Shown in pieces: positions 923-41,944 of a DNA stretch of 64,000 nt. Below the pieces are notes generated by a model. That model did not search any database. It was given only the letters and a program-made list of their open reading frames with translations, and was not told the DNA's origin. Both the position numbers and the translations under genes were made by a program. The stretch is from an uncultured Pseudomonadota bacterium (GTDB lineage: Bacteria; Pseudomonadota; Alphaproteobacteria; RF32; CAG-239). The DNA lies in assembly GCA_949289935.1 (NCBI GenBank), contig CASEQD010000005.1, positions 66,655-130,654 on the forward strand, read 5' to 3'. Within the stretch, counting starts at the first letter, position 1. Every line of letters begins with the position of its first letter.

Positions 923-1023
923 AATAACTCTCCGTAACAATTTTTTTCATTGTTCCTTAAAACATTTGCCATAATAATAAAAACAACTCTTTAAAGTTCA
1001 ATTAATCTGAAAGCGGAAACAAA

Positions 1024-1470
1024 ATGAAAGCATTGGTTCAGCGGGTAAAAGAAGCGTCGGTATCCGTAGGTGGAAAAAAACATTCGCACATCGGCGCCGG
1101 ACTGTTGGTTTTTTTGGGCGTGGAAAAAGGAGATTCCGAAAAAGAAGCTGACTGGCTGGCCGGAAAAGTTTCTTCTTTGCGCATCTTTGCAGATTCTCAG
1201 GGAAAGATGAATTTATCTGTAAAAGAAATTTCAGGCGGCCTGTTGGTTGTATCTCAGTTCACTCTTGCGGCGGATACCAACCGGGGCAATCGTCCCGGTT
1301 TTGAAAAAGCGGCGCTTCCGGCTGAAGCGGAAAAACTGTATGAATATTTTGTAAAAAAGCTGAAAAGCGGAAACATTCCAGTAACTACGGGCATTTTTCA
1401 GGCCGATATGCAGGTTGCCCTGATAAATGACGGACCGGCGACATTCATGTTGGAGAAAAAAAATGCCTGA
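1024..1470 (+). CDS. dtd: D-aminoacyl-tRNA deacylase
   Basis: 148 aa. Start MKALVQRV, SQFTL motif and C-terminal NDGPATF are typical of Dtd. Confidence 0.9.
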   Translation: MKALVQRVKEASVSVGGKKHSHIGAGLLVFLGVEKGDSEKEADWLAGKVSSLRIFADSQGKMNLSVKEISGGLLVVSQFTLAADTNRGNRPGFEKAALPAEAEKLYEYFVKKLKSGNIPVTTGIFQADMQVALINDGPATFMLEKKNA

Positions 1471-2236
1471 AAAAACAAAATTGCCGGAGGAAAAACGCAT
1501 CATCCGCCGCCTGCGTAAAATTTCTTATCTGGATAACAAGGCCGTCAGTGAAGTTGAATCGGACATTTGGCAGTCTCTGAAAAAAAATCCGGAAAATACG
1601 GCTTGTCGGATTTTGTGGTTGTCAAATCTGCTTATGCAGGGAAAACGGGATGAAGCCGTTTCCGTTGCCGGAAGAATATGGGCTGACGGCGGTTCTATCA
1701 GCGAAAATATAAAGTTTATATATATAAACTGTCTGATCGGGATGGGACTGAATGTTATGGCGCAAATGCTTTTGGATGACGTTTTGGAAACAAAAGAAAA
1801 ACTGTCGGCGGAAGAGCTGGCCGTTTGCGTAAATTATGTTTTGTTTACGGGAGACAACGGCATTTTGCCGAAAATAATTTCTTTGTGCCGCAACAAAAAA
1901 CAGGGAGATTTGCTGCAGGCATGGGAAGAAGATTTTTCTCAAAACGGATATTGGCCGCATTACCGGATGTTTCAAAACATCATTGAACGAAACCTGAAAA
2001 ACAGTCGTTGCTTCTGCAGCGGTTTCGTCGGAGAAAACGCCGGAACAAAACTCTTGTCCTGCTGCATATATGCCAACCTTCGGGCGTCCGGCTGCCTGAA
2101 ACAGGAAGAGATAATACAACGGGAACTCAAAGCTTATTGCACCGCCAAAAAAATGACGGAGAGTCCCGCTTTTTTATGCAGCGTCAGGCCTCTGGAACTT
2201 CTGGCTCAACCGAAGTCTCCTGACCGGCCGGTGTAA
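1463..2236 (+). CDS. hypothetical helical (TPR-like?) protein
   Basis: Long ORF in a coding-like frame. I chose ATG 1463 (GGAG 8 nt upstream, overlaps the dtd stop) over the track start at 1427. No recognisable motifs. Confidence 0.5.
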   Translation: MPEKTKLPEEKRIIRRLRKISYLDNKAVSEVESDIWQSLKKNPENTACRILWLSNLLMQGKRDEAVSVAGRIWADGGSISENIKFIYINCLIGMGLNVMAQMLLDDVLETKEKLSAEELAVCVNYVLFTGDNGILPKIISLCRNKKQGDLLQAWEEDFSQNGYWPHYRMFQNIIERNLKNSRCFCSGFVGENAGTKLLSCCIYANLRASGCLKQEEIIQRELKAYCTAKKMTESPAFLCSVRPLELLAQPKSPDRPV

Positions 2237-3227
2237 TCATCCGGGGCAGCGCCGGGATATTGCCTTTTTCCCTCTCTGCCTGTTGAATATGTGTATTGAG
2301 CTGTTCGCAGGCATTATAAAACAGTTTTTTCAAAAGCTTTAAGGCGGCCTGCTGCTCGTCTTCATTGTTTTCAAACAAAACAAAACGGTTTTGATGAACG
2401 GTTTGCGCTTTTCGTCCGTCGGCAAACGACAGTTCCATGGAAATAACCATATGCAGCCGGCTGGATGTTGTATTTAAAGCTTCGACCTTGGCGCGTAGAA
2501 CTTTTGTTTTAACAATATAGTCGGCATCTTTTTCATCGGCTGCTGTTTCAAGATGTTCGTTTTTAACAAACCAGTCTGAAACAATTTTGGCATGAGCGGC
2601 AGATTGAGTATGATTAAAAAACTCAACCGGCGCCGCATATATCCGGCTTTTAATTAGGGATGATATTTCTGCTTCGGGTAATGAAGCACTTCCTTCCTGA
2701 AGCGGAGAATTTTCCTGCAAAAGAGCGCTCTCGTTTCCGGCTCCGTAATTTTCTTCCAGATGGTGTGTAATTTCTTCCGACAGCTCGGCCGTATTTTCTG
2801 TTGTCTGATCATCGGAGAGCGGCTCTGCATCTGCCTGTTTATTGAAAAAGTCATCTGTTGCGCGGGAAACATTTTCATCAGAAACATACCCGGAAATCTC
2901 AACACATATTTTATCGGCGGACTGTTCGGTTGTTTTAACGGAAAGATCTTCGACATATTCATCGACGATTTCATAAACCAAAACATTAAAATCATGACTG
3001 TCCAGCTGCTCTTTATATGTTTTTAAAAAGGGCAGGGCGCTGACGGCATTGAAAACGGCTTTATCGGTAACCCGCACCCGCGCGGTAGACATTGTTTCAT
3101 CTCCGCTGATGGTTTCGCAGGCATTCCCGTGCAGCGAAACAACGCCATCTTCCGCCCGCGCCGGAAAAAAGCTATACACAAGCGGCAGCGTCAAAAAAAC
3201 AGAAAAAATAAAAACTCTGAAAACCAT
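2184..3227 (-). CDS. hypothetical secreted acidic protein
   Basis: N-terminal signal-peptide-like MVFRVFIFSVFLTLPLVYSFFPARAEDG. I chose ATG at 3227. No known domain recognised. Confidence 0.55.
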   Translation of the reverse strand: MVFRVFIFSVFLTLPLVYSFFPARAEDGVVSLHGNACETISGDETMSTARVRVTDKAVFNAVSALPFLKTYKEQLDSHDFNVLVYEIVDEYVEDLSVKTTEQSADKICVEISGYVSDENVSRATDDFFNKQADAEPLSDDQTTENTAELSEEITHHLEENYGAGNESALLQENSPLQEGSASLPEAEISSLIKSRIYAAPVEFFNHTQSAAHAKIVSDWFVKNEHLETAADEKDADYIVKTKVLRAKVEALNTTSSRLHMVISMELSFADGRKAQTVHQNRFVLFENNEDEQQAALKLLKKLFYNACEQLNTHIQQAEREKGNIPALPRMITPAGQETSVEPEVPEA

Positions 3228-5619: not shown

Positions 5620-6212
5620 CTTTCCGTCCTGAGATGCGTCCCGTCAGCTTCTCTTCTTGAGATAGAAAATTTCTCTGATTCATTTTCACTGAACAGAACG
5701 CTTCTCCTTTCTCGTTTCTCGTTTCTCTTTTCTCTGTTCTCTTGTCTCTTTTCTCTTTTCCTCTCCGCTGAGTAGTTCTCCCCCTTTTCTCCTCCCCTGA
5801 GTAGGGGAGGCGGGAGGGGTATGAATCTAAAACGAATTATCTAATTTCCTCCCCCTGAGTAGGGCTGGAGGCAGAAAAACAATCCGGTGAATTGTTTTTC
5901 AACGACAGAGTCTGAATTGTTAGATTGTGAACAGGCGATAGCCTGAGGAAACAATCGTTACAATTCAGTTGACCAAAGCAGCTTTGCTGCAAGAAGGCGG
6001 GAGGGGGTATGAATCTAAAACGAATTATCTAATTTCCTCCCCTGAATATCCTCTCCATTTCTCCTCCCCTGAGTAGGGGAGGCGGCCGAAGCTAAAAGCA
6101 ACTAACGTTGCTTTTAGCAAGGAGACGCAATGAGACTTTTCTTTTGGAGGGAGTAGTACTACTCCCTCCAAAAGAATTAGTCGGAATTGAAGAGGGGTAT
6201 GATTCAAACAAA
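5620..6212. repeat. mosaic intergenic repeat cluster R1 (CT-rich tract, CCTGAGTA units, hairpin modules H1 and H2)
   Basis: Contains a CT-rich tract at 5700-5790 and CCTGAGTA cores at about 5769, 5797, 5855 and 6069. GGGTATGAWTC occurs three times. The H1 hairpin spans 5912-5968 and a 34-bp perfect palindrome spans 6141-6174. The same modules recur in R3-R7. Confidence 0.9.
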
Positions 6213-6282: not shown

Positions 6283-6309
6283 AAAATCAGTGATGATAAA
6301 GTGTGGAGG

Positions 6310-7098
6310 ATGAAATGCGTGCGATTCTTTCCGCCGGCAAAAAGGTATATTTTACCTTGCTGGCTTCTTCTTTTATGTTCCCGATTAGATTGCAATACGT
6401 TAGGCTACGATTCGACAACAGCATGCGACAACGGCATCAAATGTCCCTTCGGCGAATATTGGGCATGCCCTGAACCTAAAAAACCCGAAGGTGCCGTTCT
6501 CGGTCAGTGCACAGGTTATGCCAAAAATTGCAACATCGGAGATATCCTTTATACAGACGGCACCTGCTCCGCCGATGTCGTCTCCGGTAAAACCCCGCTT
6601 GCCGTCGTCGTTTATATTAGTCCTGATGGTTGCGGCCAGGCTCTGGCTCTGGAAGGACTGGGAAGTTTTGCATGGTCAACGGAATATGTTGATATCCCGG
6701 ATTTAGCAAATTACGATAATCCTGCAAATGATTTTTCCAGTTGTGAAAATACGAAAACTGTTATTGATTACAATTCCAAACAATACGGAAACGGTGCTCA
6801 TTATTATCCGGCGTTTTGGGAAGTATACAACTACGCGCCGTCCACCATGCCGGAAACCAAAGGCAAATGGTGTCTGCCGGCCGTCGGCATATTAAACAGC
6901 ATTTATGATAACGTAAAGGTTATTAACCAAAGCCTGATTAGAATAAATAAAACATACATTAACGATAGTTTGTTCTGGTCGTCGTCCGAGGGCGATGCTG
7001 GCTACGCGTGGAGCTGGCGCATAGATAGATCCAACGCCATCAGTTACTACGACAGTAAGGACACCCTCCACTATGTTCGCCCGGTGCTCGCGTTTTAA
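6310..7098 (+). CDS. Cys-rich DUF1566/C-type-lectin-like protein, paralog P1 (N-terminus altered by a 26-nt deletion; possibly decaying)
   Basis: The body is highly similar to P2/P3 (DCNTLGYDSTTACDNGIKCPFGEYWACPEP ... KGKWCLP ... WSSSE ... YVRPVLAF). The mature part is in frame only with ATG 6310 (MKCVRFF...), not with the ATG used by P2/P3. Confidence 0.6.
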   Translation: MKCVRFFPPAKRYILPCWLLLLCSRLDCNTLGYDSTTACDNGIKCPFGEYWACPEPKKPEGAVLGQCTGYAKNCNIGDILYTDGTCSADVVSGKTPLAVVVYISPDGCGQALALEGLGSFAWSTEYVDIPDLANYDNPANDFSSCENTKTVIDYNSKQYGNGAHYYPAFWEVYNYAPSTMPETKGKWCLPAVGILNSIYDNVKVINQSLIRINKTYINDSLFWSSSEGDAGYAWSWRIDRSNAISYYDSKDTLHYVRPVLAF

Positions 7099-15369: not shown

Positions 15370-16194
15370 ATGCGTGTGCTTCTTTCCGCCGGCAAAAAGG
15401 TATATTTTACCCTGCTGGCTTCTTCTTTTATGTTCCCAATACAAGCTTTCGCCCAGTGTGCGGAAACAGATTGCAATACGTTAGGCTACGATTCGACAAC
15501 ATCATGCGACAACGGCATCAAATGCCCTTTCGGCGAATACTGGGCTTGTCCCGAACCGGCCAAACCGGAAGGAGCAGTTCTCGGCCAGTGCACCGGCTAC
15601 GCAAAAAACTGCAAAATCGCTGATATTCTTTATTCTGACGGCACCTGTTCCGCTGATGTTGTCTCAAATAAAACTCCAGTCGGTGTTGTTGTTTATATCG
15701 GCGGGGACGGTTGCGGTCAGGCGCTGGCATTGGAAGGACTGGGAGAATATCCATGGTCAACAGAACATGTTGATATTCCGGATTTATTCAATTACAGCAG
15801 TGAACCAATCAATGACTTTTCCAATTGTGAGAATACCAAAACTGTTATTGATTACAGCTATAAACAATACGGAGACAGCGCTTATAAATATTACCCGGCG
15901 TTTTGGGAGGCATACAACTACGCCCCGTCAACCATGCTGGAAACGAAGGGTAAATGGTGTTTGCCGGCCGGCGGCGTATTAAACAGCATTTATCAGAACA
16001 AGACGGCTATTGATCAAAGCCTGACCAGAATAAACAAGCCCAATGTTGAGAGTGGCAGCAGTTGGTGGTGGTCGTCGTCCGAGGGCAATTATGGCTACGC
16101 GTGGCGCTGGTACGCGTCTTCGGGTAGGTTCAGCTACAGCTACAATTACAATAAGGGCATCAACAGCTATGTTCGCCCGGTGCTCGCTTTTTAA
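15370..16194 (+). CDS. secreted Cys-rich DUF1566/C-type-lectin-like protein, paralog P2
   Basis: I chose ATG 15370 after a GGAGG RBS. Signal peptide MRVLLSAGKKVYFTLLASSFMFPIQAFA|QC. The KGKWCLP..G.L, WWSSSE, YAW and VRPVLAF pattern resembles the DUF1566/Fib_succ signature (WRLP, YWSS, VRCV). Confidence 0.75.
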   Translation: MRVLLSAGKKVYFTLLASSFMFPIQAFAQCAETDCNTLGYDSTTSCDNGIKCPFGEYWACPEPAKPEGAVLGQCTGYAKNCKIADILYSDGTCSADVVSNKTPVGVVVYIGGDGCGQALALEGLGEYPWSTEHVDIPDLFNYSSEPINDFSNCENTKTVIDYSYKQYGDSAYKYYPAFWEAYNYAPSTMLETKGKWCLPAGGVLNSIYQNKTAIDQSLTRINKPNVESGSSWWWSSSEGNYGYAWRWYASSGRFSYSYNYNKGINSYVRPVLAF

Positions 16195-22989: not shown

Positions 22990-23235
22990 TTTCTCTGAAT
23001 AGTTCTCCACTTTCTCTCCCTTGAGTAGCCTCTCTTTTTCTCCTCCCCTGAGTACATCCCTCTCATTCCCTCCCTGAGTAGCCTCTCTTTTTCTCCTCCC
23101 TGAGTAGGGCTTTCCCTTTCCTCTCCCCCTGAGTAGGGGGAGTTGGAGGGGGTATGATTCAAACCCAATCATCAGAATCTTTTTCGCCGACAGAAGTAAA
23201 ATTGCCGGATTGTAAAAATGACAATCAAACTCAAA
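22990..23235. repeat. mosaic repeat cluster R5 (five to six CCTGAGTA units + degenerate H1-like tail)
   Basis: The spacing between successive TGAGTA cores is 26-29 nt by my count. The cluster ends in CTCCCCC-TGAGTA-GGGGGAG hairpin + GGGGGTATGATTC. Confidence 0.9.
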
Positions 23236-27885: not shown

Positions 27886-28090
27886 AAAAATAAAATCCCC
27901 GAAGGGATTTGTTGTTAAAACCGGTGAGGCAAGCCGTCATAGCCGTACACGACATTCAAAACTCGAACCGCTGTCACTAAGTGGGCACCATATAAACAAA
28001 CCACGATTTGTTCAGAGACAGTTCCCTGAAAAATAATGTTGGCTCGGTAGACCTGCGGAAACTACGCACCGGACAGCTTGCCTCCATGCC
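27886..28090 (-). ncRNA. ssrS: candidate 6S RNA (SsrS)
   Basis: A roughly 200-nt non-coding gap immediately downstream of zapA, which is the classic ssrS position. The 5' arm GAGGCAAGCUGUC pairs with the 3' arm GACGGCUUGCCUC. There are internal hairpins, and it ends in the terminator AAAUCCC-UUCG-GGGAUUU plus a U-run. Not verified with a covariance model. Confidence 0.5.
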
Positions 28091-29365: not shown

Positions 29366-29929
29366 ATGAAACAGCTTGCAGGATCAATCAGAATTGGCTG
29401 GGTTATCGAATATAAGGGAAAACCTTGGACAATTGTCAAAGCCCAGCATATCAAACCGGGAAAAGGCGGCGCCTTTATGCAGGTGGAAATGAAAGCCGTT
29501 GAAGAGGGCACCAAAACCAACGAACGCTTCAGAACCGAAGACACTGTTGAAAAATTGATGGTTGAAGAAAAAGACTGCCAGTTTCTTTTTGAAGACGGAA
29601 CCGGACTGACCTTCATGGACAGCGAAACTTTTGACCAATTCACTCTTCCGGCGGACATTTTGGGCGATTCCCGTCCTTTTATGACCGATGGGATGGAAGT
29701 CATCATCAGTTTTATTGACGGCAAACCGATTTCTGTCGAACTGCCGCTGCAGGTTGTCTGCACCGTATCCGAAACCGAGCCGGTGGTTAAAGGCCAGACG
29801 GCGGCATCGTCATACAAACCGGCTGTTTTGGACAACGGAGTGCGCGTTATGGTTCCGCCGTTTATCTCTGCCGGTGACAAAATCGTTGTCGGTACAGCCG
29901 AAGCCAACTATGTCGAAAGAGCAAAATAA
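29366..29929 (+). CDS. efp: translation elongation factor P
   Basis: 187 aa. The KPGKGGAF loop and overall EF-P pattern are present. Confidence 0.9.
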   Translation: MKQLAGSIRIGWVIEYKGKPWTIVKAQHIKPGKGGAFMQVEMKAVEEGTKTNERFRTEDTVEKLMVEEKDCQFLFEDGTGLTFMDSETFDQFTLPADILGDSRPFMTDGMEVIISFIDGKPISVELPLQVVCTVSETEPVVKGQTAASSYKPAVLDNGVRVMVPPFISAGDKIVVGTAEANYVERAK

Positions 29930-30735
29930 TGTCTTATCTTTCTCCGAATTTAACCAATCTGATTGCGGCGGTAAAAAAAGCTTCGTCTTCTCTTGACCGT
30001 GATTTTGGTGAAATCGAAAAACTTCAGTCGTCCGTAAAAGATTATAAACAGTTTGTGTTTAACGGTTACAACAAAGCCGACCGCATGCTGCGGACGGAGC
30101 TTTCCAGAATGCGTCCGTCTTTTGCTTTTGCCGCTGACGGGCGTCCCCGGCCTCAGGGCGGACATTTTATCATTTCTCCGGTCAGCGGGCTGCAGAATTT
30201 TATTCACGGCATATCCGGTTTTTCCATGACAGTCGCCATGTGTGAAAACGATACGGTTCTGGCTGCCGTTGTTTACAATCCGGCCCGGGATGAAATGTTT
30301 TTTGCCGAAAAAGGCATGGGGGCTTATAAAGAAGGTTTCCGCAGCCATGAAAGACTGCGCGTTTCCGCCCGCAAAGAACCGGAAGAAGCTCTTGCGGCAA
30401 TAGAATTGTCCGGCCGGGAAGATAATTTTTCGGAATATGCTGTTTTGCAAAACAAACTGGCGGCGGCGATGGGCGGCGTTCGCACGCTGGGCGATCCGGC
30501 GCTTGATTTGGCGTATGTTGCGGCCGGAAAGCTGGATGCTTTTGTTGCCTGTGCCCAAAAACCGTCCGATATTGCGGCCGGCATGCTTCTGGTTAAGGAA
30601 GCCGGCGGTTATGTCTTTGACATCAATCAGAAAGACATCCGTACGGAAAATCTCTCAGCCGTAATTTCTTCGGGAGATATTCTGGCCGTTAATGCAAATT
30701 TAAGCAACCGGATGTATGATTTGTTAAATAAATAA
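29929..30735 (+). CDS. inositol monophosphatase/SuhB-family protein with degenerate metal-binding motifs
   Basis: Family layout with ALDLAYVAAGKLDAF and SDIAAGMLLVKEAGG. The canonical WxIDPLDGTxNF motif is FIISPVSGLQNF here. Confidence 0.75.
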   Translation: MSYLSPNLTNLIAAVKKASSSLDRDFGEIEKLQSSVKDYKQFVFNGYNKADRMLRTELSRMRPSFAFAADGRPRPQGGHFIISPVSGLQNFIHGISGFSMTVAMCENDTVLAAVVYNPARDEMFFAEKGMGAYKEGFRSHERLRVSARKEPEEALAAIELSGREDNFSEYAVLQNKLAAAMGGVRTLGDPALDLAYVAAGKLDAFVACAQKPSDIAAGMLLVKEAGGYVFDINQKDIRTENLSAVISSGDILAVNANLSNRMYDLLNK

Positions 30736-30762
30736 AATTTAACATACTTGAGGAAATAAAAA

Positions 30763-31659
30763 ATGCGGTCTGAATTGTTGTTATCTTTGTCTGTTGCGGG
30801 GGCGGTCTGCCTCGGAATGGTTTATGCGGCGCGGGCGCAGGATGATGTTTACATTGATCTGTCGGTGCTGAACTCATTGCAGCAGGGAACGGAGATGACG
30901 GTTCAGCCGTTGTTTCCCGAAGTGAAAGAAAAACCGGCGGTTAAAAAGAAACTGCAAAAAAAACCGGTAAAACGTCGGACGGTTAAAAAGAAACAAACTG
31001 CCGTTGCCGGGAAAGCCGAAATATCGGCGCAGCAGGAAAATATGGAAAAAGCCGGAAGCAAAACAGAAGCGCGGCCTTCAGCCGGCGGCGAAAAGGCAAG
31101 TACCGTCAATGAGCTCAAACAGGCCATAGAAAATAACCCGGTAAAGAAAGAGCAAAGCAGTATTCCCGAAAATGAAAAAGCTGAAAGCGCAACCTCGGAA
31201 ACAGAGGAAAATATTTTGCCGGAAGACGCAAATAAAGGCGTTTTGACGCCGGCAGCCCCGGTTGTCGTAACAAAAACTGAAACGACCGCTCTGCAACCGG
31301 CAGAAAAAACTGCGGCAGAATCCGTGGTGCCGCCGGTTCAGACGCCTGCGGAAAACAACATCAGCCGGAGCATTGTCTTCGGAGCGGAATCTTCTGATCT
31401 GACAGAAGCCGATAAACAGCAGATTGACGCGATTATTGCTGCTTTTGAAGATATTGAAAACAGCAAAATTGCCATTACGTCATATAACCTAGATGACGGG
31501 AAGGATGTTTTCTATCGCAAAAAACAAAGCCTTGACCGTGCCATTGCCGTCAGGTCTTATCTGTTGCGCAAAGGATATAAAAATTACAGCATAAAAGTCA
31601 TCAACATTCCGGCCGGAGATCCGAGGGTCAACACGGTTGATGTTGTCGAATTGCGCTGA
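30763..31659 (+). CDS. secreted protein with OmpA-like C-terminal domain
   Basis: Signal peptide, a Lys/Pro/Ala-rich linker, and a C-terminal OmpA_C-like segment (ITSYNLDDGKDVFYRKKQSLDRAIAVRSYLLRKGY). Confidence 0.6.
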   Translation: MRSELLLSLSVAGAVCLGMVYAARAQDDVYIDLSVLNSLQQGTEMTVQPLFPEVKEKPAVKKKLQKKPVKRRTVKKKQTAVAGKAEISAQQENMEKAGSKTEARPSAGGEKASTVNELKQAIENNPVKKEQSSIPENEKAESATSETEENILPEDANKGVLTPAAPVVVTKTETTALQPAEKTAAESVVPPVQTPAENNISRSIVFGAESSDLTEADKQQIDAIIAAFEDIENSKIAITSYNLDDGKDVFYRKKQSLDRAIAVRSYLLRKGYKNYSIKVINIPAGDPRVNTVDVVELR

Positions 31660-31766
31660 TTTTTGTAAAAAAATTAAAAATATGCAAATTAATGCTTGCG
31701 TTATTCAAATGTCTAATGTATAAAAGCACTAAATTTGTATAAAAGTTTTTTTGGAGAAATAAAAAG

Positions 31767-32000
31767 ATGAAAAAAGGAATTCATCCGGATTATCATGAAA
31801 TTACCTATGTCATGACCGACGGAACGGAAGTTAAAACAAGATCAACCTGGGGAAAAGAAGGCAGCAAGATGAATCTTGAAATTGACCCGAAGTCTCATCC
31901 CGCATGGACAGGCATTCACCGCATGGTTGATTCTGGCGGACAGGTTTCAAAATTCAACAGCAAATTTGGTGCTTTTGTTAAAAGTCCGTCTGCAAACTAA
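31767..32000 (+). CDS. rpmE: 50S ribosomal protein L31 (no CxxC zinc motif)
   Basis: [19 protein letters not shown]...HPAWTG is diagnostic of L31. Confidence 0.9.
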
Positions 32001-32024
32001 ATTTAGCGCAATTTAAGCTTTTTT

Positions 32025-32058
32025 AACCCGGAACAGATATACTGCCTCCGGGTTTTCT
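32025..32058 (+). terminator. rho-independent terminator after rpmE
   Basis: AACCCGGA...TCCGGGTT stem followed by a T-rich tail. Confidence 0.7.
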
Positions 32059-32078
32059 TATTTTATACGGAAGCAGAA

Positions 32079-33716
32079 ATGGTAAACATTACGCACTATG
32101 AGGTTTATACGGATCGCGGCGACGGATGGAAGCTGGAAGAACGCTTTCCCGTTGAACAGCGCCAAAATGCGGTAAAATATGCGCGGGAAAAAGAAAGAGA
32201 AAATATTTCGGTCAAATTAATTTGCGAAAAATTTGACGTGCTGGATAACAGTTATCAGGAAAGCACGGAATTTGTCAGTCTGGCGCAAAAGAAAAAAAGC
32301 AAAAAAAATGTTTCCGGCAGCGATGATTTTTTCAACGGCGATTCCTCAAACATGAAAAACGATGGAAAAAATACGGTTTTTGAATCTGTTGAAAATAGTG
32401 AAAATTCTTTTTCTGCGGTTATGGGCGCTTTGCTGAAACTGCTTGCCGTTATTGTGTTCAGCTTGTTTCTGACGCATGTGGTTGTCAATCTGAGCCTGCC
32501 GCTTCTGGAAAATATTATTCCGGAAGAGTCTTCAAAAACCACGCTTTTTTTATTTTTCTTTGGTTTGTTCTTAATAACGGCCACGCCTTTGATTTTGAAA
32601 AAAGTGCCGCTTGATGCTTTTGGTTTCAGACGTTCTAAAAATACCGGAAAAATACCGGAACGCCGTCTTTTTAAAAAAGCCAGAGGGATTTTCTATTTAT
32701 ATAATCTTGACGAACGTTTGGATCCGGGCGTTGTGCCGGTTTATCCGGAGGCGGAACCTGAAGACAAACGTTATATCATAGATTTTTTGAGCAATGTGAT
32801 TGCTAATTTGGACGGAAGCATCTCGCTCCGGGATGATTTCAACCGCTTTGGCATCAAACTGGTTATTTATGGCGGCTGTATGGAACTGGCGCGGCGCCGC
32901 CGGCTGAATATTGCTCAGGCAAATTCTCTGCTTAATGAAGCTTTTGGAATTCTGGACGGAAAAAATTATGAAGTGGCGGATTTTTATGATGCCAAAAGAA
33001 CTTACAAAGACAATCGTGTAGCCGTTTTTTTAGTCGGCGTCGGAGCTTATTTGATGTCACAGCTTGTCCGGCAGGAACGGATAGATAAAAACGTATTACG
33101 TCTGACCTTTTATAAATGGCAGAAACAAAATATCATCAAACGTCCCGATAACTTTCCTCAGAAAGAGCCGAAAGAAGAAACACCGGAAAATTATAAGCCG
33201 GAATCAAGCGGAAAAACGGAACATGTCGGCTGTCGGGTAAATATTTTAACCAAAATCCTCTTTAACGAAGCCGCGCCGGCCGAAAATTCAGTCAACAAAG
33301 ACGAAATCAAAAATGCCGTCGGCAACATCATTTTGAATCTGTCCGGAAAATATAACGGAACGCAGCAAAAAACAGAAGATTACGGCAGCATAAGCTTCTT
33401 TAATTTAAAAAATGCTCTGCGGTTTTCCGTTGAGTTTTTAAGAGATTCCGAAACCTATGCCGATGAATTGAATGATGATAACTTGATAATAGCCCACCGG
33501 ATAAACATTCTCGGCGAAACGGATGATAATCCCGAAACGCAGGAAAACATGGTGCAGGATATGTTTGAAAATACTTATGATGGAGAAATCTTAACCGATG
33601 AAACTGTTTATCGTTCCGTCGGCAGCAGCGGCGGCTGGAAATTCGATTTTCTCGGAGAAAAAACATTGCAAAGAAGCGGAAAAAGCGTTCCTCTCTATAA
33701 AGTAATAACAATGTAA
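32079..33716 (+). CDS. hypothetical membrane protein
   Basis: 545 aa with two or three central TM helices. No domain recognised. Confidence 0.55.
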   Translation: MVNITHYEVYTDRGDGWKLEERFPVEQRQNAVKYAREKERENISVKLICEKFDVLDNSYQESTEFVSLAQKKKSKKNVSGSDDFFNGDSSNMKNDGKNTVFESVENSENSFSAVMGALLKLLAVIVFSLFLTHVVVNLSLPLLENIIPEESSKTTLFLFFFGLFLITATPLILKKVPLDAFGFRRSKNTGKIPERRLFKKARGIFYLYNLDERLDPGVVPVYPEAEPEDKRYIIDFLSNVIANLDGSISLRDDFNRFGIKLVIYGGCMELARRRRLNIAQANSLLNEAFGILDGKNYEVADFYDAKRTYKDNRVAVFLVGVGAYLMSQLVRQERIDKNVLRLTFYKWQKQNIIKRPDNFPQKEPKEETPENYKPESSGKTEHVGCRVNILTKILFNEAAPAENSVNKDEIKNAVGNIILNLSGKYNGTQQKTEDYGSISFFNLKNALRFSVEFLRDSETYADELNDDNLIIAHRINILGETDDNPETQENMVQDMFENTYDGEILTDETVYRSVGSSGGWKFDFLGEKTLQRSGKSVPLYKVITM

Positions 33717-33786
33717 GAAGACAAAACCTTGCCAAAGGCAACATTTTATGATATTATAAAATATAAGATTAAAAGAGGAAAGAAAA

Positions 33787-34614
33787 ATGGTAAACAGCAT
33801 TTCCGGAGCCACCAATGTCGATGATAACGGGGTTAACCACTGGGAAAAAACCGTTACCGACGTCAATGATATTGATGAAAAGTTTTCCAACGCACGCGAT
33901 TTGGGATACATGCGCCTGAACTACGCACGGGTAAGCGCGGTAGGAAATCTTGCGCTTTATGATACGCAGGATATTTACAAAATTCAGGTGCAATCCAACG
34001 GAAAGCTGACAATTGGTCTGCGCAGTGGAACGGAAGATGAAGAAGAAAATGTGCTGAACTTGTCGGAATATCAGCAGAAGCTGGATGAATTGAAAAAACT
34101 GAATGACCCCGAGGGATATGCCAAAGAGCAGGAGGAACTGCGTAAAAAGGAAGAAGCCTACGGACTGCTTGGTTCGGCCGGAGAAGGGCTGCAAATTCAG
34201 GTCTATACCGTAAAAAACGGTAAGGAAGTTTTGATCGGAGACAGCACGGCAGATCCGGACAGCAAGGAATATGCCAATATGGAACAAATTCTGAATGGCG
34301 AATACCGGGCTAAAAAAGGTGACTATTACATAAAAGTCAGCCGTTCCGAAGATTTTGACAGCCGCACGGAAGTTCCCTATCTGCTGCAAATAAAACAGGG
34401 CAGTGATTATAAACATGATTATCTGACCACAGAGCAGGAATCTGATGATACCAAAAACAAAACAACCTCAAATGTGCCCATGACCAATTATAACGGTACG
34501 CTTTCCGCCGTAAACGCCTTGCAGATACAAGCGCAGAGATACCAAGCAACGGCGCAGATGTTGGAGGTTGGTTATCAAAACATGGCCAGCATTTACAGCA
34601 AAAACAAATTTTAA
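33787..34614 (+). CDS. hypothetical protein, possible pre-peptidase C-terminal (PPC)-like beta domain
   Basis: DIYKIQVQSNGKLTIGL ... GDYYIKVSRS ... YLLQI resembles the PPC-domain pattern. The match is weak. Confidence 0.4.
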   Translation: MVNSISGATNVDDNGVNHWEKTVTDVNDIDEKFSNARDLGYMRLNYARVSAVGNLALYDTQDIYKIQVQSNGKLTIGLRSGTEDEEENVLNLSEYQQKLDELKKLNDPEGYAKEQEELRKKEEAYGLLGSAGEGLQIQVYTVKNGKEVLIGDSTADPDSKEYANMEQILNGEYRAKKGDYYIKVSRSEDFDSRTEVPYLLQIKQGSDYKHDYLTTEQESDDTKNKTTSNVPMTNYNGTLSAVNALQIQAQRYQATAQMLEVGYQNMASIYSKNKF

Positions 34615-34637
34615 TAAAAAATTGCTTGTATAATAAC

Positions 34638-34679
34638 AAAACATTCTCTATTCTTAGCCCAATAGAGAATGTTTTTTTG
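34638..34679 (+). terminator. rho-independent terminator
   Basis: 13-bp stem AACATTCTCTATT/AATAGAGAATGTT followed by a T-run. Confidence 0.8.
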
Positions 34680-34705
34680 TATAAGGAAAGGAAGGAATAA
34701 GAAAG

Positions 34706-35251
34706 ATGACTGCTCCTTTAATGCCGAAAGCAACGGCGGTATGGTTGGTTGAAAATACAACATTGACATTTAAACAAATTGCTGATTTTTGCGAATTGCA
34801 CGAATTGGAAATACAGGCCATTGCCGATGGCGATGTCGCATTCAACATCATGGGAATCAGCCCGGTTGATACCGGTCAGCTGACGTGGGAAGAAATTCAC
34901 CGCTGTGAAGCGGATGAAAATGCCGTGGTAAAAGCTTGCGAAATGGAATTGAATGTGCGTGAAAGAAATGCCAAAGCCAAAAAAGTTCTTTCTCCGTCTC
35001 AACGCGGAGATAAACCCAATGCTGTTGCCTGGATTTTGAAAAATTGTCCGGAAATTGCCGACAGTCAGATTTGCAAACTGATAGGTACAACCAAGCCGAC
35101 AATTCAGGCGATTCGCGAAGGAACGCACCGCGATATGGCCAATATCCGGGCAAAAAATCCGGTGGCAGTCGGTTTATGCACGGAAAAAGACCTGGAAAAA
35201 GCCATCGCCTTATCCAAAGCGCCGTCCAAACGTAAAAACAAAAAAGCTTAA
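34706..35251 (+). CDS. DUF1013-family protein (alphaproteobacterial cell-cycle regulator TrcR-like)
   Basis: The N-terminus MTAPLMPKATAVWLVENTTLTFKQIADFCELHELEIQAIADG matches the conserved DUF1013 start. Confidence 0.8.
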   Translation: MTAPLMPKATAVWLVENTTLTFKQIADFCELHELEIQAIADGDVAFNIMGISPVDTGQLTWEEIHRCEADENAVVKACEMELNVRERNAKAKKVLSPSQRGDKPNAVAWILKNCPEIADSQICKLIGTTKPTIQAIREGTHRDMANIRAKNPVAVGLCTEKDLEKAIALSKAPSKRKNKKA

Positions 35252-35255
35252 AATA

Positions 35256-35290
35256 ATAAAAAAAACCGTCTTTAACCGACGGTTTTTTTA
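35256..35290. terminator. bidirectional terminator
   Basis: ACCGTC...GACGGT stem flanked by an A-run and a T-run, between convergent genes. Confidence 0.7.
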
Positions 35291-35695
35291 TTATTTGACG
35301 ATAAAACGTTCATTGGAATTCATTTTGGCCAAATCCTCTTCAAGCCGTGGATCATCCGGAGCTTGTCCCGTCTGGGCAATATTTTTGATATTGTTGATAT
35401 AAGTATCATAATTTTGCTTATATTCGGGCGTATTTGACAAACCTTTAAATTCAATGGTTGTTGTTGAAACATCCGCAGAATGTTCATCATGAGAACTGAT
35501 ATGGCTGATTGTTTCTGTGGAAGAAGAGGCATTGTCATAACGAATGGGAGGAAGCTTTTCCTGTTGTTGAATGACGCCCTGCGGTACAAAAAAATCAGGT
35601 TGCAGGTTTTTTCGCTGATATCGTCCGTCGCTTTGGGCATAAACATTAATCACCGTCAAAAAGCTGCCTAACAGAATCAAAAAAAATGCTTTCAT
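35291..35695 (-). CDS. small secreted hypothetical protein
   Basis: Signal peptide MKAFFLILLGSFLTVINVYA|Q. No known domain. Confidence 0.5.
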   Translation of the reverse strand: MKAFFLILLGSFLTVINVYAQSDGRYQRKNLQPDFFVPQGVIQQQEKLPPIRYDNASSSTETISHISSHDEHSADVSTTTIEFKGLSNTPEYKQNYDTYINNIKNIAQTGQAPDDPRLEEDLAKMNSNERFIVK

Positions 35696-35740
35696 GCTCC
35701 CGTAACCCAAAATTAACAAATCTGTTTTAAGTTAAAATAC

Positions 35741-36430
35741 ATGAAAAAACTTTTTTTTGTATTAACGTTTTTGGTCTGGAGCTTTCGGGAAATTACATTT
35801 GCCGCGGCTGCCGATGTTTGCCTCGAATATAAAATCGATCCGGAAATCGAGTTTCTGACTTCTTATGGCGAACTTGTTTATGACCGCAGTTACAATCGTC
35901 GGCAGCTGACGGAACTGGGCGAAAAATTCGGCATCGTCGAACATGGGCTTTTTGCTTCCGGATTGGCGACAATCGGCGTAACCAGTCATGTCTCTGTCAG
36001 TGCCGCAAGTCGCCGAAATGACAACGGCAGTTTTTGTGTCATTCCGACAAAAGTCAGCATATTTGTCGGCTATCAGAATCCGACGATTTATCTTTCCGGT
36101 GATTTACGCCCCGGCAGCTGTGAATATAACCTGGTTTTGAGGCATGAACAAACGCACCAGCAGATTAATGTAACAGCTCTGGAATATTTCCTGCCTAAGC
36201 TCAAACAGGCATCAGAAGCGCTGATTTCCAACATCTCTCCCCGTCAGGTAAACCGGCAGGAAGATATAGAACCGGCAATCAAAGAACTTTCTGAAATTTA
36301 TCTTGCCCGCATAGAACCGTTGGTTAATTTTTTAAAAAGCGAACTGGGAAAAGAACAAGGCAAACTGGACAGTCATGAAAATTACGACTTTGAAGGAAAC
36401 TTATGCCGTTACTACAATGCAACGCATTAA
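35741..36430 (+). CDS. secreted hypothetical protein, possible DUF922-like Zn-peptidase (HEQTH)
   Basis: Has a signal peptide. The single HExxH-like motif LRHEQTHQQ resembles DUF922. Confidence 0.4.
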   Translation: MKKLFFVLTFLVWSFREITFAAAADVCLEYKIDPEIEFLTSYGELVYDRSYNRRQLTELGEKFGIVEHGLFASGLATIGVTSHVSVSAASRRNDNGSFCVIPTKVSIFVGYQNPTIYLSGDLRPGSCEYNLVLRHEQTHQQINVTALEYFLPKLKQASEALISNISPRQVNRQEDIEPAIKELSEIYLARIEPLVNFLKSELGKEQGKLDSHENYDFEGNLCRYYNATH

Positions 36431-36433
36431 AAA

Positions 36434-37126
36434 TCACGAAGCTTTAAAATGGCATTTTTTCAGCTGTTGCGGCAAATCGTCAAGAAAACTCTGAATCCCT
36501 TTATAAGCGGCGTCAATATAGGTTTTGTCTTTAGCGGAATTTTGATTATAATAAATCCGTACGGTTGTCATTCCTGTTTCTTTGGCAAATTCCAGATTGG
36601 AATAGCTGTCGTCCACAAAAATACAGTCGTGGGGATTAACGTTAATTTTGTCGCAAAGCTTGCGATAAACCGTGGAATCTTCATTTTTCTTAAAGGTATT
36701 AAAATCTTCAACCGAATAAAAACGCCCTTTGAAAAAGTCATACAGTCCGATATGCTTCAAAATCTTTTCACACACATCACGCGAACTGGTTGAAAAAACA
36801 TATTGCCGACAGGGAAGCGCTTCCAGTTTTTCAGCCATATGTTCATAAGGAACAATCGGCTCAATGGGCTTGCGTTTATGATAGGCCAGAAACATATCTT
36901 TGGGAGAGATTCCGTATTCACGGACAAAAACTTCCCCTCCGTCCCGAAAAGTCAGGTAAGATTCCTTGACTTTATTTTTAGCCTCTTCCAGACTAAGGTT
37001 TACGCCGAGATCCTTAACGGCGGCGACGGCAGCGGCTTCGTCAAGCATATCTGCAAATTCGGGCGTAATGCGATATAGCGTGTTGTCCAAATCCCAGATA
37101 ATATTTTTCTTGCAAAAGTCAGCCAC
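36434..37126 (-). CDS. HAD-family hydrolase (pyrimidine 5'-nucleotidase-like)
   Basis: Motif I IWDLDNTLY and motif IV FVDDSYSNLEFAKETG. Confidence 0.75.
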   Translation of the reverse strand: MADFCKKNIIWDLDNTLYRITPEFADMLDEAAAVAAVKDLGVNLSLEEAKNKVKESYLTFRDGGEVFVREYGISPKDMFLAYHKRKPIEPIVPYEHMAEKLEALPCRQYVFSTSSRDVCEKILKHIGLYDFFKGRFYSVEDFNTFKKNEDSTVYRKLCDKINVNPHDCIFVDDSYSNLEFAKETGMTTVRIYYNQNSAKDKTYIDAAYKGIQSFLDDLPQQLKKCHFKAS

Positions 37127-37257
37127 GGTTCTTCTCCTTATCCTGAAACAAACGTAATCAGTGTAAACGTAAAAAAATCTTTGTCAATATTTTTCAATAA
37201 AATACCTCCTGTAACGGAGGTATTAATTTTCCAAAGAAAACTGATTTTCAAAAAAAA

Positions 37258-37740
37258 TCAATAACTTTCCATGGCATAAATATCATCAACCGCCCATGTT
37301 CCGTTTTGCTGGCGCATGACATAAATGATATTTCCCTGACACAGGCCGAACCATTTACCGTTGCAGCTGCCGCGGGTATACATTTCCACCTGTCCGTTCG
37401 GCAGTGGTTTAAGCTTCAAAATCTGATATGTGATTTCGCTTGGACGCCCGAGGCTTTCATCATTCATAAAGATAAAAGAAGGCATTTTGTCCTTATTGTC
37501 TTGACAAAACGGAGCATCGGGCTTAATGGTGCAGCGCAAAGCCAGATTAACGGCGCAAACCATTCCACTGTCTTCCCGGCAGTCTTCAACGGCATTTTGC
37601 AGATTGAAAGAAAAAATTTTATTTTCAATTCCGGCGGAAATTTCCGCCGGAGCATCGCCTGAAGTTTTTTCACTGCCGCCATCCGAGCATGCGCTCAGCA
37701 AAACGGCGGCGGCCAATACAGGAACATAATAAAATTTCAT
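37258..37740 (-). CDS. hypothetical lipoprotein
   Basis: Lipobox LLSAC at the end of the signal peptide MKFYYVPVLAAAVLLSAC. Confidence 0.6.
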   Translation of the reverse strand: MKFYYVPVLAAAVLLSACSDGGSEKTSGDAPAEISAGIENKIFSFNLQNAVEDCREDSGMVCAVNLALRCTIKPDAPFCQDNKDKMPSFIFMNDESLGRPSEITYQILKLKPLPNGQVEMYTRGSCNGKWFGLCQGNIIYVMRQQNGTWAVDDIYAMESY

Positions 37741-37753
37741 GAAAATTTCTCCG

Positions 37754-38311
37754 TCAGAATGTATATCTGATACCGGCGGAATATTCCATCATATGGTCAT
37801 AATCTTCAATCTGATCAAGGCCGACATAACGGGCGACGGCGCGAACCGACCAGTTTGTATCCAGAGCATAAGTCAGACCGAGACCGGCGCGGTAGCCGTA
37901 GCCATGGTCATGTCCGCCGCTGACGGAAGGATCGGCATATGATTTCTTAAAGTCATACATTCCGATGCCTGCCGTTCCGAGCAGGGCAAAATCACGGTCG
38001 CAGCCCAGCGGAAGATAACCGTACATATCCAGCCCCGCAGCTTGAAAAGATGTTTTGATACGGTCAAAATTATGCCCTTTGGATGAAGAGTCGGAGTATT
38101 GATAAAAAAGTTCGGTGCCGAAAAAGCGGTTGTAATCGGTGCCGATGTTGATTGAACCGGAATTATAATTCGGTCGCATGCCGTCAGCCGTTCCGTTGCT
38201 GTAAACATAGTCAATGCCGGCATAGGGCAGATAATCAAAATTTTCTTCCGCATAAGCGGCCGTAGCAAAAACGGACAAAGCGGCGGCAGCGCTGAATAAA
38301 GTTTTTTTCAT
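37754..38311 (-). CDS. outer-membrane beta-barrel protein (OmpA-like/porin family 8-strand type)
   Basis: Signal peptide, alternating aromatic/Gly beta-strand pattern, and C-terminal ...AGIRYTF. Confidence 0.7.
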   Translation of the reverse strand: MKKTLFSAAAALSVFATAAYAEENFDYLPYAGIDYVYSNGTADGMRPNYNSGSINIGTDYNRFFGTELFYQYSDSSSKGHNFDRIKTSFQAAGLDMYGYLPLGCDRDFALLGTAGIGMYDFKKSYADPSVSGGHDHGYGYRAGLGLTYALDTNWSVRAVARYVGLDQIEDYDHMMEYSAGIRYTF

Positions 38312-38451
38312 GTTTTCTCCTCCCGATAAAATAACCTTACACGAACAATATACACCCTATTAATTAAAATTAAAGCAAATTCTGCGATAATCTTGTTGAG
38401 AAATATATCGGAAAATGTTATAAATAAAGATAAAATCAGAAAAAACGGGGA

Positions 38452-39000
38452 ATGGCAATGATAAAACAAAACGAGCGCGGCTATACGATGACTGAGGTTA
38501 TAAGCGTCCTGGCCATTATCGGCGTTCTGGCAGCCAGCGCCGCCCGCCTTGTCAGCAATATGTTTGGTCGTTATAAGGCCAGCCGCGTGGCCGATCAGAT
38601 TGTAGATATGCAAAAAAGCATTAACCGCCGCTATGTCGCCGACGGAACTTATACCAAACTGACGGAAGAAACGATAGCTGAGGAAAAAATTGTCGGCGGC
38701 GATATGCTGAGCGATGGAAAGCTTGTTCATGCTTACGGAGACGTGGATGTAACCGGTGGAGCGACGACATTTAAAATCAAATTCAGCAACCTTCCTTATG
38801 ATGTGTGTGTAACTTTGGCCAATCTCAATTGGATTATTCAGGATAGTTCCGATCTTGTCAGCCTTGATATTAACGGCAAAATTTTTAATTGGCCGGAAGC
38901 GGCTGCCAATGCGCAAAGCCAGCTGCCGATGGATATCGGGCGGGCGATGGAAACCTGTACCAGAGACAAGGAGAGCGCCATTACCTGGGAATTTCAATAG
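38452..39000 (+). CDS. type IV pilin / pseudopilin-like protein
   Basis: Prepilin leader and cleavage/methylation motif KQNERG|YTMTEVISVLAIIGVLAA, with Glu at +5. Confidence 0.75.
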   Translation: MAMIKQNERGYTMTEVISVLAIIGVLAASAARLVSNMFGRYKASRVADQIVDMQKSINRRYVADGTYTKLTEETIAEEKIVGGDMLSDGKLVHAYGDVDVTGGATTFKIKFSNLPYDVCVTLANLNWIIQDSSDLVSLDINGKIFNWPEAAANAQSQLPMDIGRAMETCTRDKESAITWEFQ

Positions 39001-39014
39001 CGCCGGAGAAACAA

Positions 39015-39440
39015 ATGATAAATGTTGGCAGTGTTAACAAAAGCAATAATGACATAAATACGTCAAAAACCAAAAAAAGCACGTCGGGGGCAAGTTTTTC
39101 CTCCTATCTGCAAAAGGCGGCGAATAACGGTCAGCCGGCTTCGGTAACGGCTAATGCCGGCGTATCGGCCACGGATGCCTTGTTGTCAATACAAATGGCC
39201 GGTGAAACGGAAGAACGGGAAATCCGCAAAAAACTTGTTCAGAGAGGAAAAACACTGTTGGAAAAACTGGAAGAAATCAGGGACGGATTGCTTTCCGGCA
39301 GCCTTTCCGTAGACAGTCTGATAAACATTTCCCGCCTGGTAAAAGAGCAAAAACACGAAAGCAGCGATCCCCGTTTATCCGAACTCATTGCCGAAATTGA
39401 ACTTCGGGTAGAAGTGGAACTAGCCAAACTTATGAAATAA
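39015..39440 (+). CDS. fliX: flagellar assembly regulator FliX
   Basis: I chose ATG 39015 after GGAGAAAC. The C-terminal half TDALLSIQ...RGKTLLEKLEEIRDGLLSG...DPRLSELIAEIELRVEVELAKL matches the FliX pattern. Confidence 0.7.
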   Translation: MINVGSVNKSNNDINTSKTKKSTSGASFSSYLQKAANNGQPASVTANAGVSATDALLSIQMAGETEEREIRKKLVQRGKTLLEKLEEIRDGLLSGSLSVDSLINISRLVKEQKHESSDPRLSELIAEIELRVEVELAKLMK

Positions 39441-39546
39441 GGGTGATAATTGCATTTTTTTTATTGATAATTAACCCTGAAATAAGTATTGCATATTATT
39501 ATACCAAAAAACAAACATAAAAAACTACATTTTTGGAGTATATAAC

Positions 39547-39975
39547 ATGGAAACAGCTGTAATTCTGCCTCCGGACTATAAACCCTCGGAAGACGAAGAA
39601 TACATGAATGCCTCTCAGGTTGAGTATTTTCGTCAAAAGCTTGAAAATTGGAAAAGAGAGCTTATCGGCCAGTCAAAGGACACGCTGGATGACTTGCGCC
39701 AGGGCGGCTTAAATCAGCCGGATGATATCGACCGGGCCTCTATGGAAACGGATAAAGCCATTGATTTACGCACCAAAGACCGCATTCGCAAACTGATTGG
39801 CAAAATCGACGATGCTCTTCAGCGCATTGAAGACGGCACATATGGCTATTGTGAAGAAACCGGTGAACCTATCGGCATTCGTCGTCTGGAAGCCCGGCCG
39901 ATTGCCACTTTGTCGGTAGAGGCGCAGGAACGCCATGAGCGCATGGAAAAAACCTACGACGATGATATTATCTAG
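39547..39975 (+). CDS. dksA: RNA polymerase-binding transcription factor DksA (only one of four zinc-finger Cys retained)
   Basis: Coiled-coil with acidic tip, YGYCEETGEPIGIRRLEARPIATLSVEAQE. Confidence 0.85.
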   Translation: METAVILPPDYKPSEDEEYMNASQVEYFRQKLENWKRELIGQSKDTLDDLRQGGLNQPDDIDRASMETDKAIDLRTKDRIRKLIGKIDDALQRIEDGTYGYCEETGEPIGIRRLEARPIATLSVEAQERHERMEKTYDDDII

Positions 39976-39987
39976 GCTGTGGAGCCC

Positions 39988-40560
39988 ATGGCTGTAAAAA
40001 ATTTTATATTGGCGTCATCTTCGCCGCAGCGTCGCCGCTTGTTGGCGCAAATCGGTTTTGAACCGGAAAAAATTGAAGCGGCGGACATTGATGAAAGCGA
40101 AAAAAAAGACGAACGGCCGTCGGAATATGTCAAACGTATGGCCAGAGAAAAGGCGTTGAAAGTTGCCGCGGCCAATCCCGGACGAATTGTCTTGGCGGCG
40201 GATACGATAGTTGTTGTCGGCACTCGTCTGCTGCATAAAGCAAAAAATGACGAGGAACAGTTCCGGGTGATGAAAATGTTATCCGGCCGGGCGCACCGGG
40301 TGTTGAGTGCGGTCTGTGTCGCGGACGAAAAAGGAAAAACAGCGGTGCGGTTGTCTTCAACACGCATCATTATGAAAAAAATGTCGGATGAAGAAATAAA
40401 AGCTTATGTCGCCGGACGGGAATGGATCGGTTGTTCCGGCTATAAAATAGAAGGATGTATGGAAGCATATGTTTCCAAAATAATAGGTTCATACAGCGGG
40501 GTTGTGGGACTGCCGCTTTATGAGGTTAAAAACTTGTTGAATGGTGTGGGGGTAAAATGA
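39988..40560 (+). CDS. maf: Maf-like nucleoside triphosphate pyrophosphatase
   Basis: FILASSSPQRRRLL start and overall Maf pattern. An alternative GTG start exists at 39979. Confidence 0.85.
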   Translation: MAVKNFILASSSPQRRRLLAQIGFEPEKIEAADIDESEKKDERPSEYVKRMAREKALKVAAANPGRIVLAADTIVVVGTRLLHKAKNDEEQFRVMKMLSGRAHRVLSAVCVADEKGKTAVRLSSTRIIMKKMSDEEIKAYVAGREWIGCSGYKIEGCMEAYVSKIIGSYSGVVGLPLYEVKNLLNGVGVK

Positions 40561-41726: not shown

Positions 41727-41727
41727 T

Positions 41728-41937: not shown

Positions 41938-41944
41938 AAAGTAA

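Follow-up and report, generated by a model that had tools for sequence, protein, structure and literature searches.

What writes the last ~120 nucleotides (nt) of three paralogous genes in an uncultured gut alphaproteobacterium, where variable cassettes are enclosed by identical anchors? The question arises from a stretch of 64,000 nt (64 kb; hereafter the window) of contig CASEQD010000005.1 (assembly GCA_949289935.1), which carries four paralogs of one small secreted protein, named P1 to P4. P2 (15370..16194, plus strand), an open reading frame (ORF) identified with its translation, is a putative target gene and encodes a Cys-rich secreted protein whose lectin-like domain is of the DUF1566/Lcl_C type; the protein of P3 (42133..42942, plus strand) is 86% identical to it and that of P1 (6313..7098, plus strand) 69% identical. 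The divergent paralog P4 (47479..48450, minus strand) ends in ...VIPVIEF, lacks the scaffold that characterizes the cassettes of the other three, and serves as an internal negative control. In all four, a signal peptide that ends in AFA, with QC after it, precedes an N-terminal module rich in Cys, and a lectin-like domain forms the C-terminus. An initial annotation, made from the sequence alone, had proposed that the C-terminal tips of P1, P2 and P3 are variable regions (VRs) written by a diversity-generating retroelement (DGR). This proposal is supported by the codon signature of the cassettes, by the lectin-like fold, and by the DGRs of relatives, in which the anchors of the window recur and template repeats (TRs) differ from VRs at adenines only; it is highly likely that the three tips are DGR-written VRs, with the TR and the reverse transcriptase (RT) located elsewhere in the genome.

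Codon signature and fold of the candidate variable regions

The candidate VRs of P1 (6976..7098), P2 (16069..16194) and P3 (42826..42942), all on the plus strand, are identical in DNA at both ends. The 15-nt 5' anchor, TGGTCGTCGTCCGAG, occupies 6976-6990 in P1, 16069-16083 in P2 and 42826-42840 in P3; the 3' anchor, TATGTTCGCCCGGTGCTCGC, occupies 7072-7091, 16168-16187 and 42916-42935, respectively; the codons common to the three genes read TGG TCG TCG TCC GAG and TAT GTT CGC CCG GTG CTC GC. Between the anchors lie cassettes of 27 codons in P1 (6991-7071), 28 codons in P2 (16084-16167) and 25 codons in P3 (42841-42915); these lengths, the coordinates and the shared anchors had all been given in the initial annotation and were reproduced by DNA alignment and codon listing. 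In P2, the 3' anchor resembles an initiation of mutagenic homing (IMH) element and is followed by TTTTT and the stop codon. The cassettes are built on the protein scaffold WSSSE(x5)AWxWxASSGxF...NK(x4)YVRPVLAF, P1 having a different internal scaffold.

The distribution of differences over codon positions was examined by setting the VRs of P1-P3 against one another. In the bodies of P2 and P3 (231 codons), 5.0% of positions 1+2 and 29.9% of third positions differ; in the 25 aligned codons of the cassette, the figures are 46% and 4% (Fisher test of cassette versus body, p = 5e-14 at positions 1+2 and 0.004 at position 3). The 13 anchor codons differ at 0 of 39 positions, and only 1 of 38 third positions differs over scaffold and anchors, against 30% in the bodies, so that the last overwriting of these regions would have taken place after most of the divergence between P2 and P3. 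An excess of changes at positions 1-2 also appears when P1 is compared with P2 or P3 (p = 3e-7 and 8e-13); the deficit at position 3 is not significant in these two comparisons. Of the upstream codons in which seven synonymous differences between P2 and P3 had been claimed, 17 (QNKTAIDQSLTRINKPN) do contain seven, and the 18th is a V/I replacement.

The claim that change is directed to positions 1-2 while a pyrimidine is kept at position 3 is borne out both by these tests and by codon choice. At the variable sites, Gly, Ser, Arg, Leu, Ala and Thr codons end in C or T in 24 of 26 cases, against 195 of 342 (57%) in the bodies (p = 2.6e-4); Gly is encoded by GGC in 8 of 8 cases and Arg by CGC in three codons, a triplet used for 0 of 9 Arg residues of the bodies. 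Given this choice of NNY codons (any two bases followed by a pyrimidine), a preference for the amino acids Tyr, Ser, Asn or Gly cannot account for the pattern. The VRs are also richer in G+C than the bodies (53-57% versus 44-47%), and the equivalent segment of P4 is AT-rich (40% GC), with drifted codons, mixed third positions and no pattern (TGG TCA TCA TCA GAA AGA AAT GAA...), both as initially described. P4 and L036, a homolog from another sample (L numbers denote the loci and contigs compared with the window), are controls that are not targets, and show ordinary synonymous drift in the codons equivalent to WSSSE.

P2 has at least 678 homologs, nearly all of them from gut metagenomes and alphaproteobacterial metagenome-assembled genomes (MAGs). 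Y, N, S, D, G and T prevail in the columns between the two anchors across the 45 closest of them; the residues K, E, Q, M and W make up 6.8% of the variable columns versus 18% of the bodies (p = 4e-19).

The cassette had been placed at the C-terminus of a DUF1566/C-type-lectin-like domain. By sequence, formal membership of the Pfam family does not stand: Lcl_C (DUF1566, PF07603) scores 20.5-22.4 bits, below the gathering cutoff of 34.9 bits (E ~1e-4 to 6e-4), and the match spans the C-terminal ~75-90 residues only. On the strength of a structural model, the assignment of P2 to the Lcl_C fold does stand. The AlphaFold2 model of P2 (116 homologs in the alignment) has a pLDDT (predicted local distance difference test) of 87.6, and Foldseek returned two significant matches from the PDB and no others: the Bacteroides ovatus fimbrial protein 4eps, which is the best match (probability 1.00, E = 1e-6), and the C-terminal domain of Legionella Lcl, 8q4e (probability 1.00, E = 3e-5, TM 0.67 on the target). 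A sequence search against the PDB gave no match, the fold search alone being informative. The fimbrial protein 4eps is presumably a DGR target itself.

Retroelement cores and template repeats in relatives

This raises the question as to what a retroelement core serving such cassettes looks like. On contig L011, a VR-bearing gene is followed by an Avd-like ORF and then by an RT with the motifs GNLTSQ and YVDD. With this RT as query, thousands of homologs were retrieved and contigs of six RT lineages were inspected; a DGR-type RT and Avd are present in all six, including contigs from the sample series of the window. The common gene order is target gene, bAvd (Pfam bAvd, 63.9 bits), non-coding units each made of a structured leader and a TR, RT (motifs LPIGNLTSQ and YVDD), a small helix-turn-helix gene, a 242-residue ORF, ligA and infC. 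One TR unit is present in L018, two in L017, three each in L037, L041, L042, L044 and L048, and eight, in tandem, in the human-gut contig OLIW01001491.1 (L030, 527-2710).

Arrays of 2-8 units stand between bAvd and RT in L030, L029, L035, L037, L041, L042, L044, L048 and L017, and the TRs inside one array vary in length (~94-160 nt) and in scaffold; the L030 unit at 1185 is poor in AAC codons and seems degenerate. In L011 (1-2500), L016 (5600-7500) and L051 (4039-5900), bAvd directly precedes RT and no TR was found between them or elsewhere on the contig; L011 and L051 still carry a VR-bearing target. A leader of ~125 nt is conserved 5' of every TR (L030, L041, L017, L044; alignment A3) and comprises a GAATCTG...CAGAG hairpin, a U6/A6 hairpin and a long-range stem around a hairpin; RNAalifold reports compensatory changes in 11 of the 31 predicted pairs, and a search of Rfam gave no match to this leader. 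L051 has a leader-like sequence, without a TR, ahead of its RT.

The TRs of relatives connect these cores to the window. They start with the 5' anchor of the window, TGGTCGTCGTCCGAG, identical over 15 nt, and those of the P0130/P0259 RT lineage (L041, L042, L045, L047, L048 and L049) end in AACTATGTTCGCCCGGTGCTCGCTTTTTT, which is identical to the 3' anchor of the window over 25 nt; the window anchors are identical to the TR ends in L037, L041, L042 and L048. As the target protein adjoining the TRs of the P0130/P0259 lineage is only 37% identical to P2, such identity is not ordinary homology. Past the shared end, GTTCGCCCGGTGCTCGCTTTTT is followed by AACCC in the VRs of the window and by TAATA or TGGTA in the TRs of L041, L042 and L048; this GC-rich 3' element, shared with the TRs and diverging only at the stop codon, is, to judge from its sequence, IMH-like. 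In between, the TRs of relatives have AAC or AAT exactly at the variable codons of the family. In three pairs of TR and VR from relatives, all the changes are at adenines: the VR of L041 has 16 A mismatches and 0 non-A mismatches to its own TR3, that of L048 has 13 and 0 to its own TR1, and that of L004 (UMGS63) has 13 and 0 to a TR of L029.

A related case concerns P3 directly. Positions 35732-41940 of the window are syntenic, at 73% nt identity, with L001, a contig of the gut MAG UMGS63 ('uncultured Azospirillum sp.'), and the gene that follows the syntenic block there is the positional ortholog of P3 and itself a DGR target gene. Its VR differs from TR2 of L030 by adenine-only changes as judged by eye; the locus is truncated, and the comparison carries less weight. 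A contig from the Logan assemblies, L053 (run ERR10610434), is 100% identical to 29547-42113 of the window and stops at the start of P3; the strain of the window hence comes from this run. The ERR10610xxx runs with neighbouring accession numbers contain contigs with the P0130/P0259 RT (L038, L040, L049). A DksA-based look-up for the ortholog of P3 in another strain returned the same strain only, on a contig ending at the start of P3.

A mechanism may be proposed on this basis. Over their last ~120 nt, P1, P2 and P3 would carry VRs served by a chromosomal DGR with its core at another place in the genome. By analogy with relatives, this core would consist of a bAvd gene, at least one TR and an RT of the DGR type and would probably adjoin ligA. 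TR RNA would be reverse-transcribed with random misincorporation opposite template adenines, and the cDNA would replace the VR between the 5' homology, TGGTCGTCGTCCGAG, and the GC-rich IMH-like 3' end, GTTCGCCCGGTGCTCGCTTTTT. With the adenines of the TR placed in AAC and AAT codons, positions 1-2 alone would be randomised, giving NNC and NNT codons on an invariant scaffold and residues rich in Tyr, Asn, Ser, Asp and Gly; the outcome would be diversification of the ligand-binding tip of a secreted lectin-like protein. We infer that a matching TR and an RT are present in the source genome and that homing continues there. Its TR is expected to start with TGGTCGTCGTCCGAG and end with TATGTTCGCCCGGTGCTCGCTTTTTT, and may be predicted to read TGGTCGTCGTCCGAG AAC AAT AAT AAC AAC GCG TGG AAC TGG AAC GCG TCT TCG GGT AAA TTC (AAC)n AAT AAG AAC AAC AAC AAC TAT GTT CGC CCG GTG CTC GCT TTT TT.

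The initial annotation had cautioned that one template cannot yield all three copies, and rightly so. Relatives offer an answer to this point: they carry 2-8 different TRs, and one and the same target holds cassettes from different TRs in different strains. In five samples, an orthologous target adjoining the core has bodies 96-99% identical and cassettes of 110-116 nt, with a TR3-type VR of 110 nt in L041 and a TR1-type VR of 116 nt in L043 and L048. The VR of L042 (242-367) is chimeric, with the scaffold of TR3 (1527) in its 5' half and a TR1-type (1004) 3' half that has the length of TR1, which suggests either partial retrohoming or TR switching at an internal conserved block. The TRs of one array have both ends in common, plus an internal block, TCC TCG GGG GCG TTC, so that full or partial replacement by different templates is to be expected. 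At the TR position just upstream of the RT in L043 (931-1250), one unit is truncated and the other resembles a VR in its substitutions (relative to the TR1 type of L041, 12 changes at A sites and 0 at non-A sites); either the TR itself has been mutagenised or the unit is an assembly chimera of TR and VR.

The differing cassette lengths and scaffolds in the window are likewise best explained by several TRs that stand in one array, have their ends in common and can each overwrite a target; from the comparison with relatives, we infer that different members of such an array wrote P1, P2 and P3 last. The wider proposal, a multi-template DGR in which leader-preceded TR units have common ends and any TR, or part of one, overwrites many dispersed targets, is tentative, its likelihood falling slightly short of even. 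If it were true, loop length and scaffold would vary by template switching, on top of adenine mutagenesis. In a limited search of the literature, no description was found of eight-unit leader-plus-TR arrays or of template switching at one target, and these features are possibly new. Should they be general, DGRs on the side of ligA, with up to eight leader-plus-TR units and, among strains of one species, template switching and mosaic cassettes, would add a combinatorial layer to DGR diversification.

Alternative origins of the cassettes

Several results weigh against a DGR as the writer of these tips. In line with the initial annotation, the window holds no RT, no Avd-like gene and no TR, nor a second copy of any cassette, by blastn-short of the cassettes, an adenine-mismatch-tolerant scan, AAC-codon density, regular expressions for RT motifs and tblastn with the RT, Avd and ligA of relatives, all run on the 64 kb. 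A gapped, adenine-tolerant comparison of P1-P3 with 25 distinct TR-like sequences from relatives gave 0 matches, the best of the 25 still leaving at least 13 non-A mismatches plus gaps. A hairpin, AGCTCCGCG[A/C]AGCGGAGCT, is conserved ~25-35 nt past the VR stop codon in L004, L011, L041 and L051, where it may be a target-recognition hairpin, and it does not occur in the window; only weak, short, non-conserved hairpins with 4-nt loops follow P1-P3. In P1, ~23 nt (…CAAGCTTTCGCCCAGTGTGCGGAAAC…) are deleted relative to P2 and P3 at window 6300-6400, the signal-peptide cleavage site is gone and the frame is shifted, the signal peptide (frame of 6303-6389) and the mature domain (frame of 6313-7098) no longer being read in one frame while the VR anchors are intact; P1 may thus be a pseudogene or have a remodelled N-terminus. 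Finally, some members of the family have K, E or Q at variable columns, which implies that not every family copy is freshly homed.

Broader scans bear on the whereabouts of the template. The TRs closest to the window cassettes (L037, L041) read WSSSEYSSNNAWNW[N/H]SSGAF(N)nNK(N)n[Y/N]VRPVLAF. Among species-representative genomes, 15 loci matched a sequence pattern; each is the coding C-terminus of a homolog and has the DNA scaffold of the window with NNC codons, and all 15 are VRs. The pattern required TACGCGTGG, whereas the TRs have AACGCGTGG at that place. A metagenome scan with AAC fixed at two codons retrieved real TRs of two other types and none with the scaffold of the window. Viral contigs contained no match to the pattern, and their RTs reach 27-33% identity only, which fits a chromosomal, non-phage system.

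Could the VRs be fossils, written by a DGR in the past whose RT or TR has since been lost or inactivated, so that the regions are now ordinary DNA? The absence of RT and TR from the window, of a matching TR among relatives and of the hairpin that relatives have after their VRs would suit such a history, as would the frameshifting deletion of P1; many family members of the VIEF type (L036, P4) moreover look decayed or never targeted. The explanation is nonetheless unlikely, for the last overwriting of P2 and P3 postdates most of the divergence of the paralogs, judging from their third positions, and DGR cores are found in every related lineage examined.

Two further explanations were weighed. 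Diversifying selection for loops rich in Tyr, Ser, Asn and Gly, combined with gene conversion between paralogs through the shared anchors, would require no retroelement; lectin-like binding loops are often of this composition, the anchors are possible recombination sites, and the paralogs are flanked by shared repeat elements. Yet selection on amino acids neither forces one synonymous codon, as seen for Gly and for an Arg triplet that the bodies do not use, nor erases synonymous change in scaffold codons, and the non-coding TRs of relatives have AAC at exactly these positions, with identical ends and A-only mismatches. Each component was also considered by itself: amino-acid selection alone was rejected on codon choice, and gene conversion alone was rejected as it would homogenise the cassettes, not diversify them. 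The combination is very improbable. An assembly artefact, in which the metagenome assembler joined reads of different strains or paralogs across the anchors, draws on the fact that contigs of this clade break at target genes and TR arrays, as L053 does, that RT contigs are mostly shorter than 10 kb, and that the VR-like copy in the TR position of L043 is a possible chimera. In the window, by contrast, the three genes are complete, in frame and set in unique flanks on a 131-kb contig, and NNY codons on an invariant scaffold would persist even if cassettes had been mis-joined; of the explanations considered, this one has next to no probability.

Comparison with known systems and genomic surroundings

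DUF1566/DUF823/Fib_succ_major domains constitute DGR target category 'd' (CLec2), which accounts for 14% of DGRs and has Legionella LdtA as its exemplar (Wu et al. 2018, PMC5758913); non-phage DGRs are documented to have remote targets, at more than 100 kb from the RT, with seven in Treponema (PMC5758913). As in the Legionella pneumophila DGR, the VRs of the window lie at the extreme C-terminus of a DUF1566/Lcl_C-type domain in a secreted or surface protein, the putative system is chromosomal and not phage-borne, the variable codons would derive from AAC/AAT, and the P2 model matches Lcl itself (8q4e). The targets of the window differ from LdtA in not being lipoproteins; each is a small, Cys-rich protein of one domain that carries an AxA signal peptide. 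The paralog family to which they belong is large and dispersed, the DGR core does not adjoin them, and relatives have arrays of up to eight TRs where Legionella has a single one. The Treponema denticola DGR (TvpA and up to seven non-adjacent targets; PMC5758913, PMC4891356) is likewise chromosomal, with several targets far from the RT and no phage association, but its targets use the FGE-sulfatase-type CLec fold; its TR variants differ between strains (PMC4891356), whereas the relatives of the window hold several TRs in one tandem array.

With the prototype of Bordetella phage BPP-1 (Mtd/Avd/TR/Brt), the putative system shares adenine-specific mutagenic retrohoming and a GC-rich IMH-like 3' element common to VR and TR, as well as, in the relatives of the window, Avd and an RT with the [I/L]GxxxSQ motif. 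The BPP-1 system, by comparison, resides on a phage and comprises a single target and a single TR; its IMH is directly followed by a defined hairpin (PMC3240598), of which no conserved equivalent was found after the VRs of the window. The Bacteroides DGRs of Type V pilus tip adhesins (bioRxiv 10.1101/2024.11.15.621889) resemble the present case in their human gut habitat and DUF1566-like C-terminal variable domain, 4eps being the best structural match of P2; the host here is an alphaproteobacterium, and its targets lack an N-terminal domain of the pilin or fimbrial kind. DGRs are an established means of targeted hypermutation in bacteria, and their remote targets of the DUF1566 type are already well described; the window adds a new example, not a new mechanism. 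Its three genes are marked out as hypervariable surface or secreted binding proteins of a much larger paralog family in an uncultured gut alphaproteobacterium. This is of use for annotation and for strain-level analysis, in which such sites mimic extreme microdiversity and cause assemblies to break; it also gives a hint as to which proteins face changing ligands in the gut.

Several of the homologous target genes in other gut alphaproteobacterial MAGs stand in tandem, three or four to an array. This is the case in L005, L009 and L015, from related MAGs, where each gene has its own VR; in L015, the ORF at 997..2517 seems to consist of two fused target domains. In the window, the paralogs are accompanied by a repeat with the core CCCCTGAGTAGGG, made of pyrimidine-rich units of ~29 nt and longer shared blocks, which occurs in 12 copies against 0.01 expected, all on the plus strand (5794-6078, 7137, 15116, 16300, 23097-23138, 43026-43092 and 48770-48840). 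Ten of the 12 copies are no more than ~1.3 kb away from a paralog, P4 on the minus strand included; the repeat may be an element of the repetitive extragenic palindromic (REP) kind, or part of a unit duplicated together with the paralog genes. Just upstream of P2 (12197-14880) are genes for a HydF-like GTPase and a radical-SAM/BATS protein, which resemble [FeFe]-hydrogenase maturases and are consistent with an anaerobic gut lifestyle. On the minus strand, 27927-28082 encodes 6S RNA (SsrS; Rfam RF00013, 61.2 bits).

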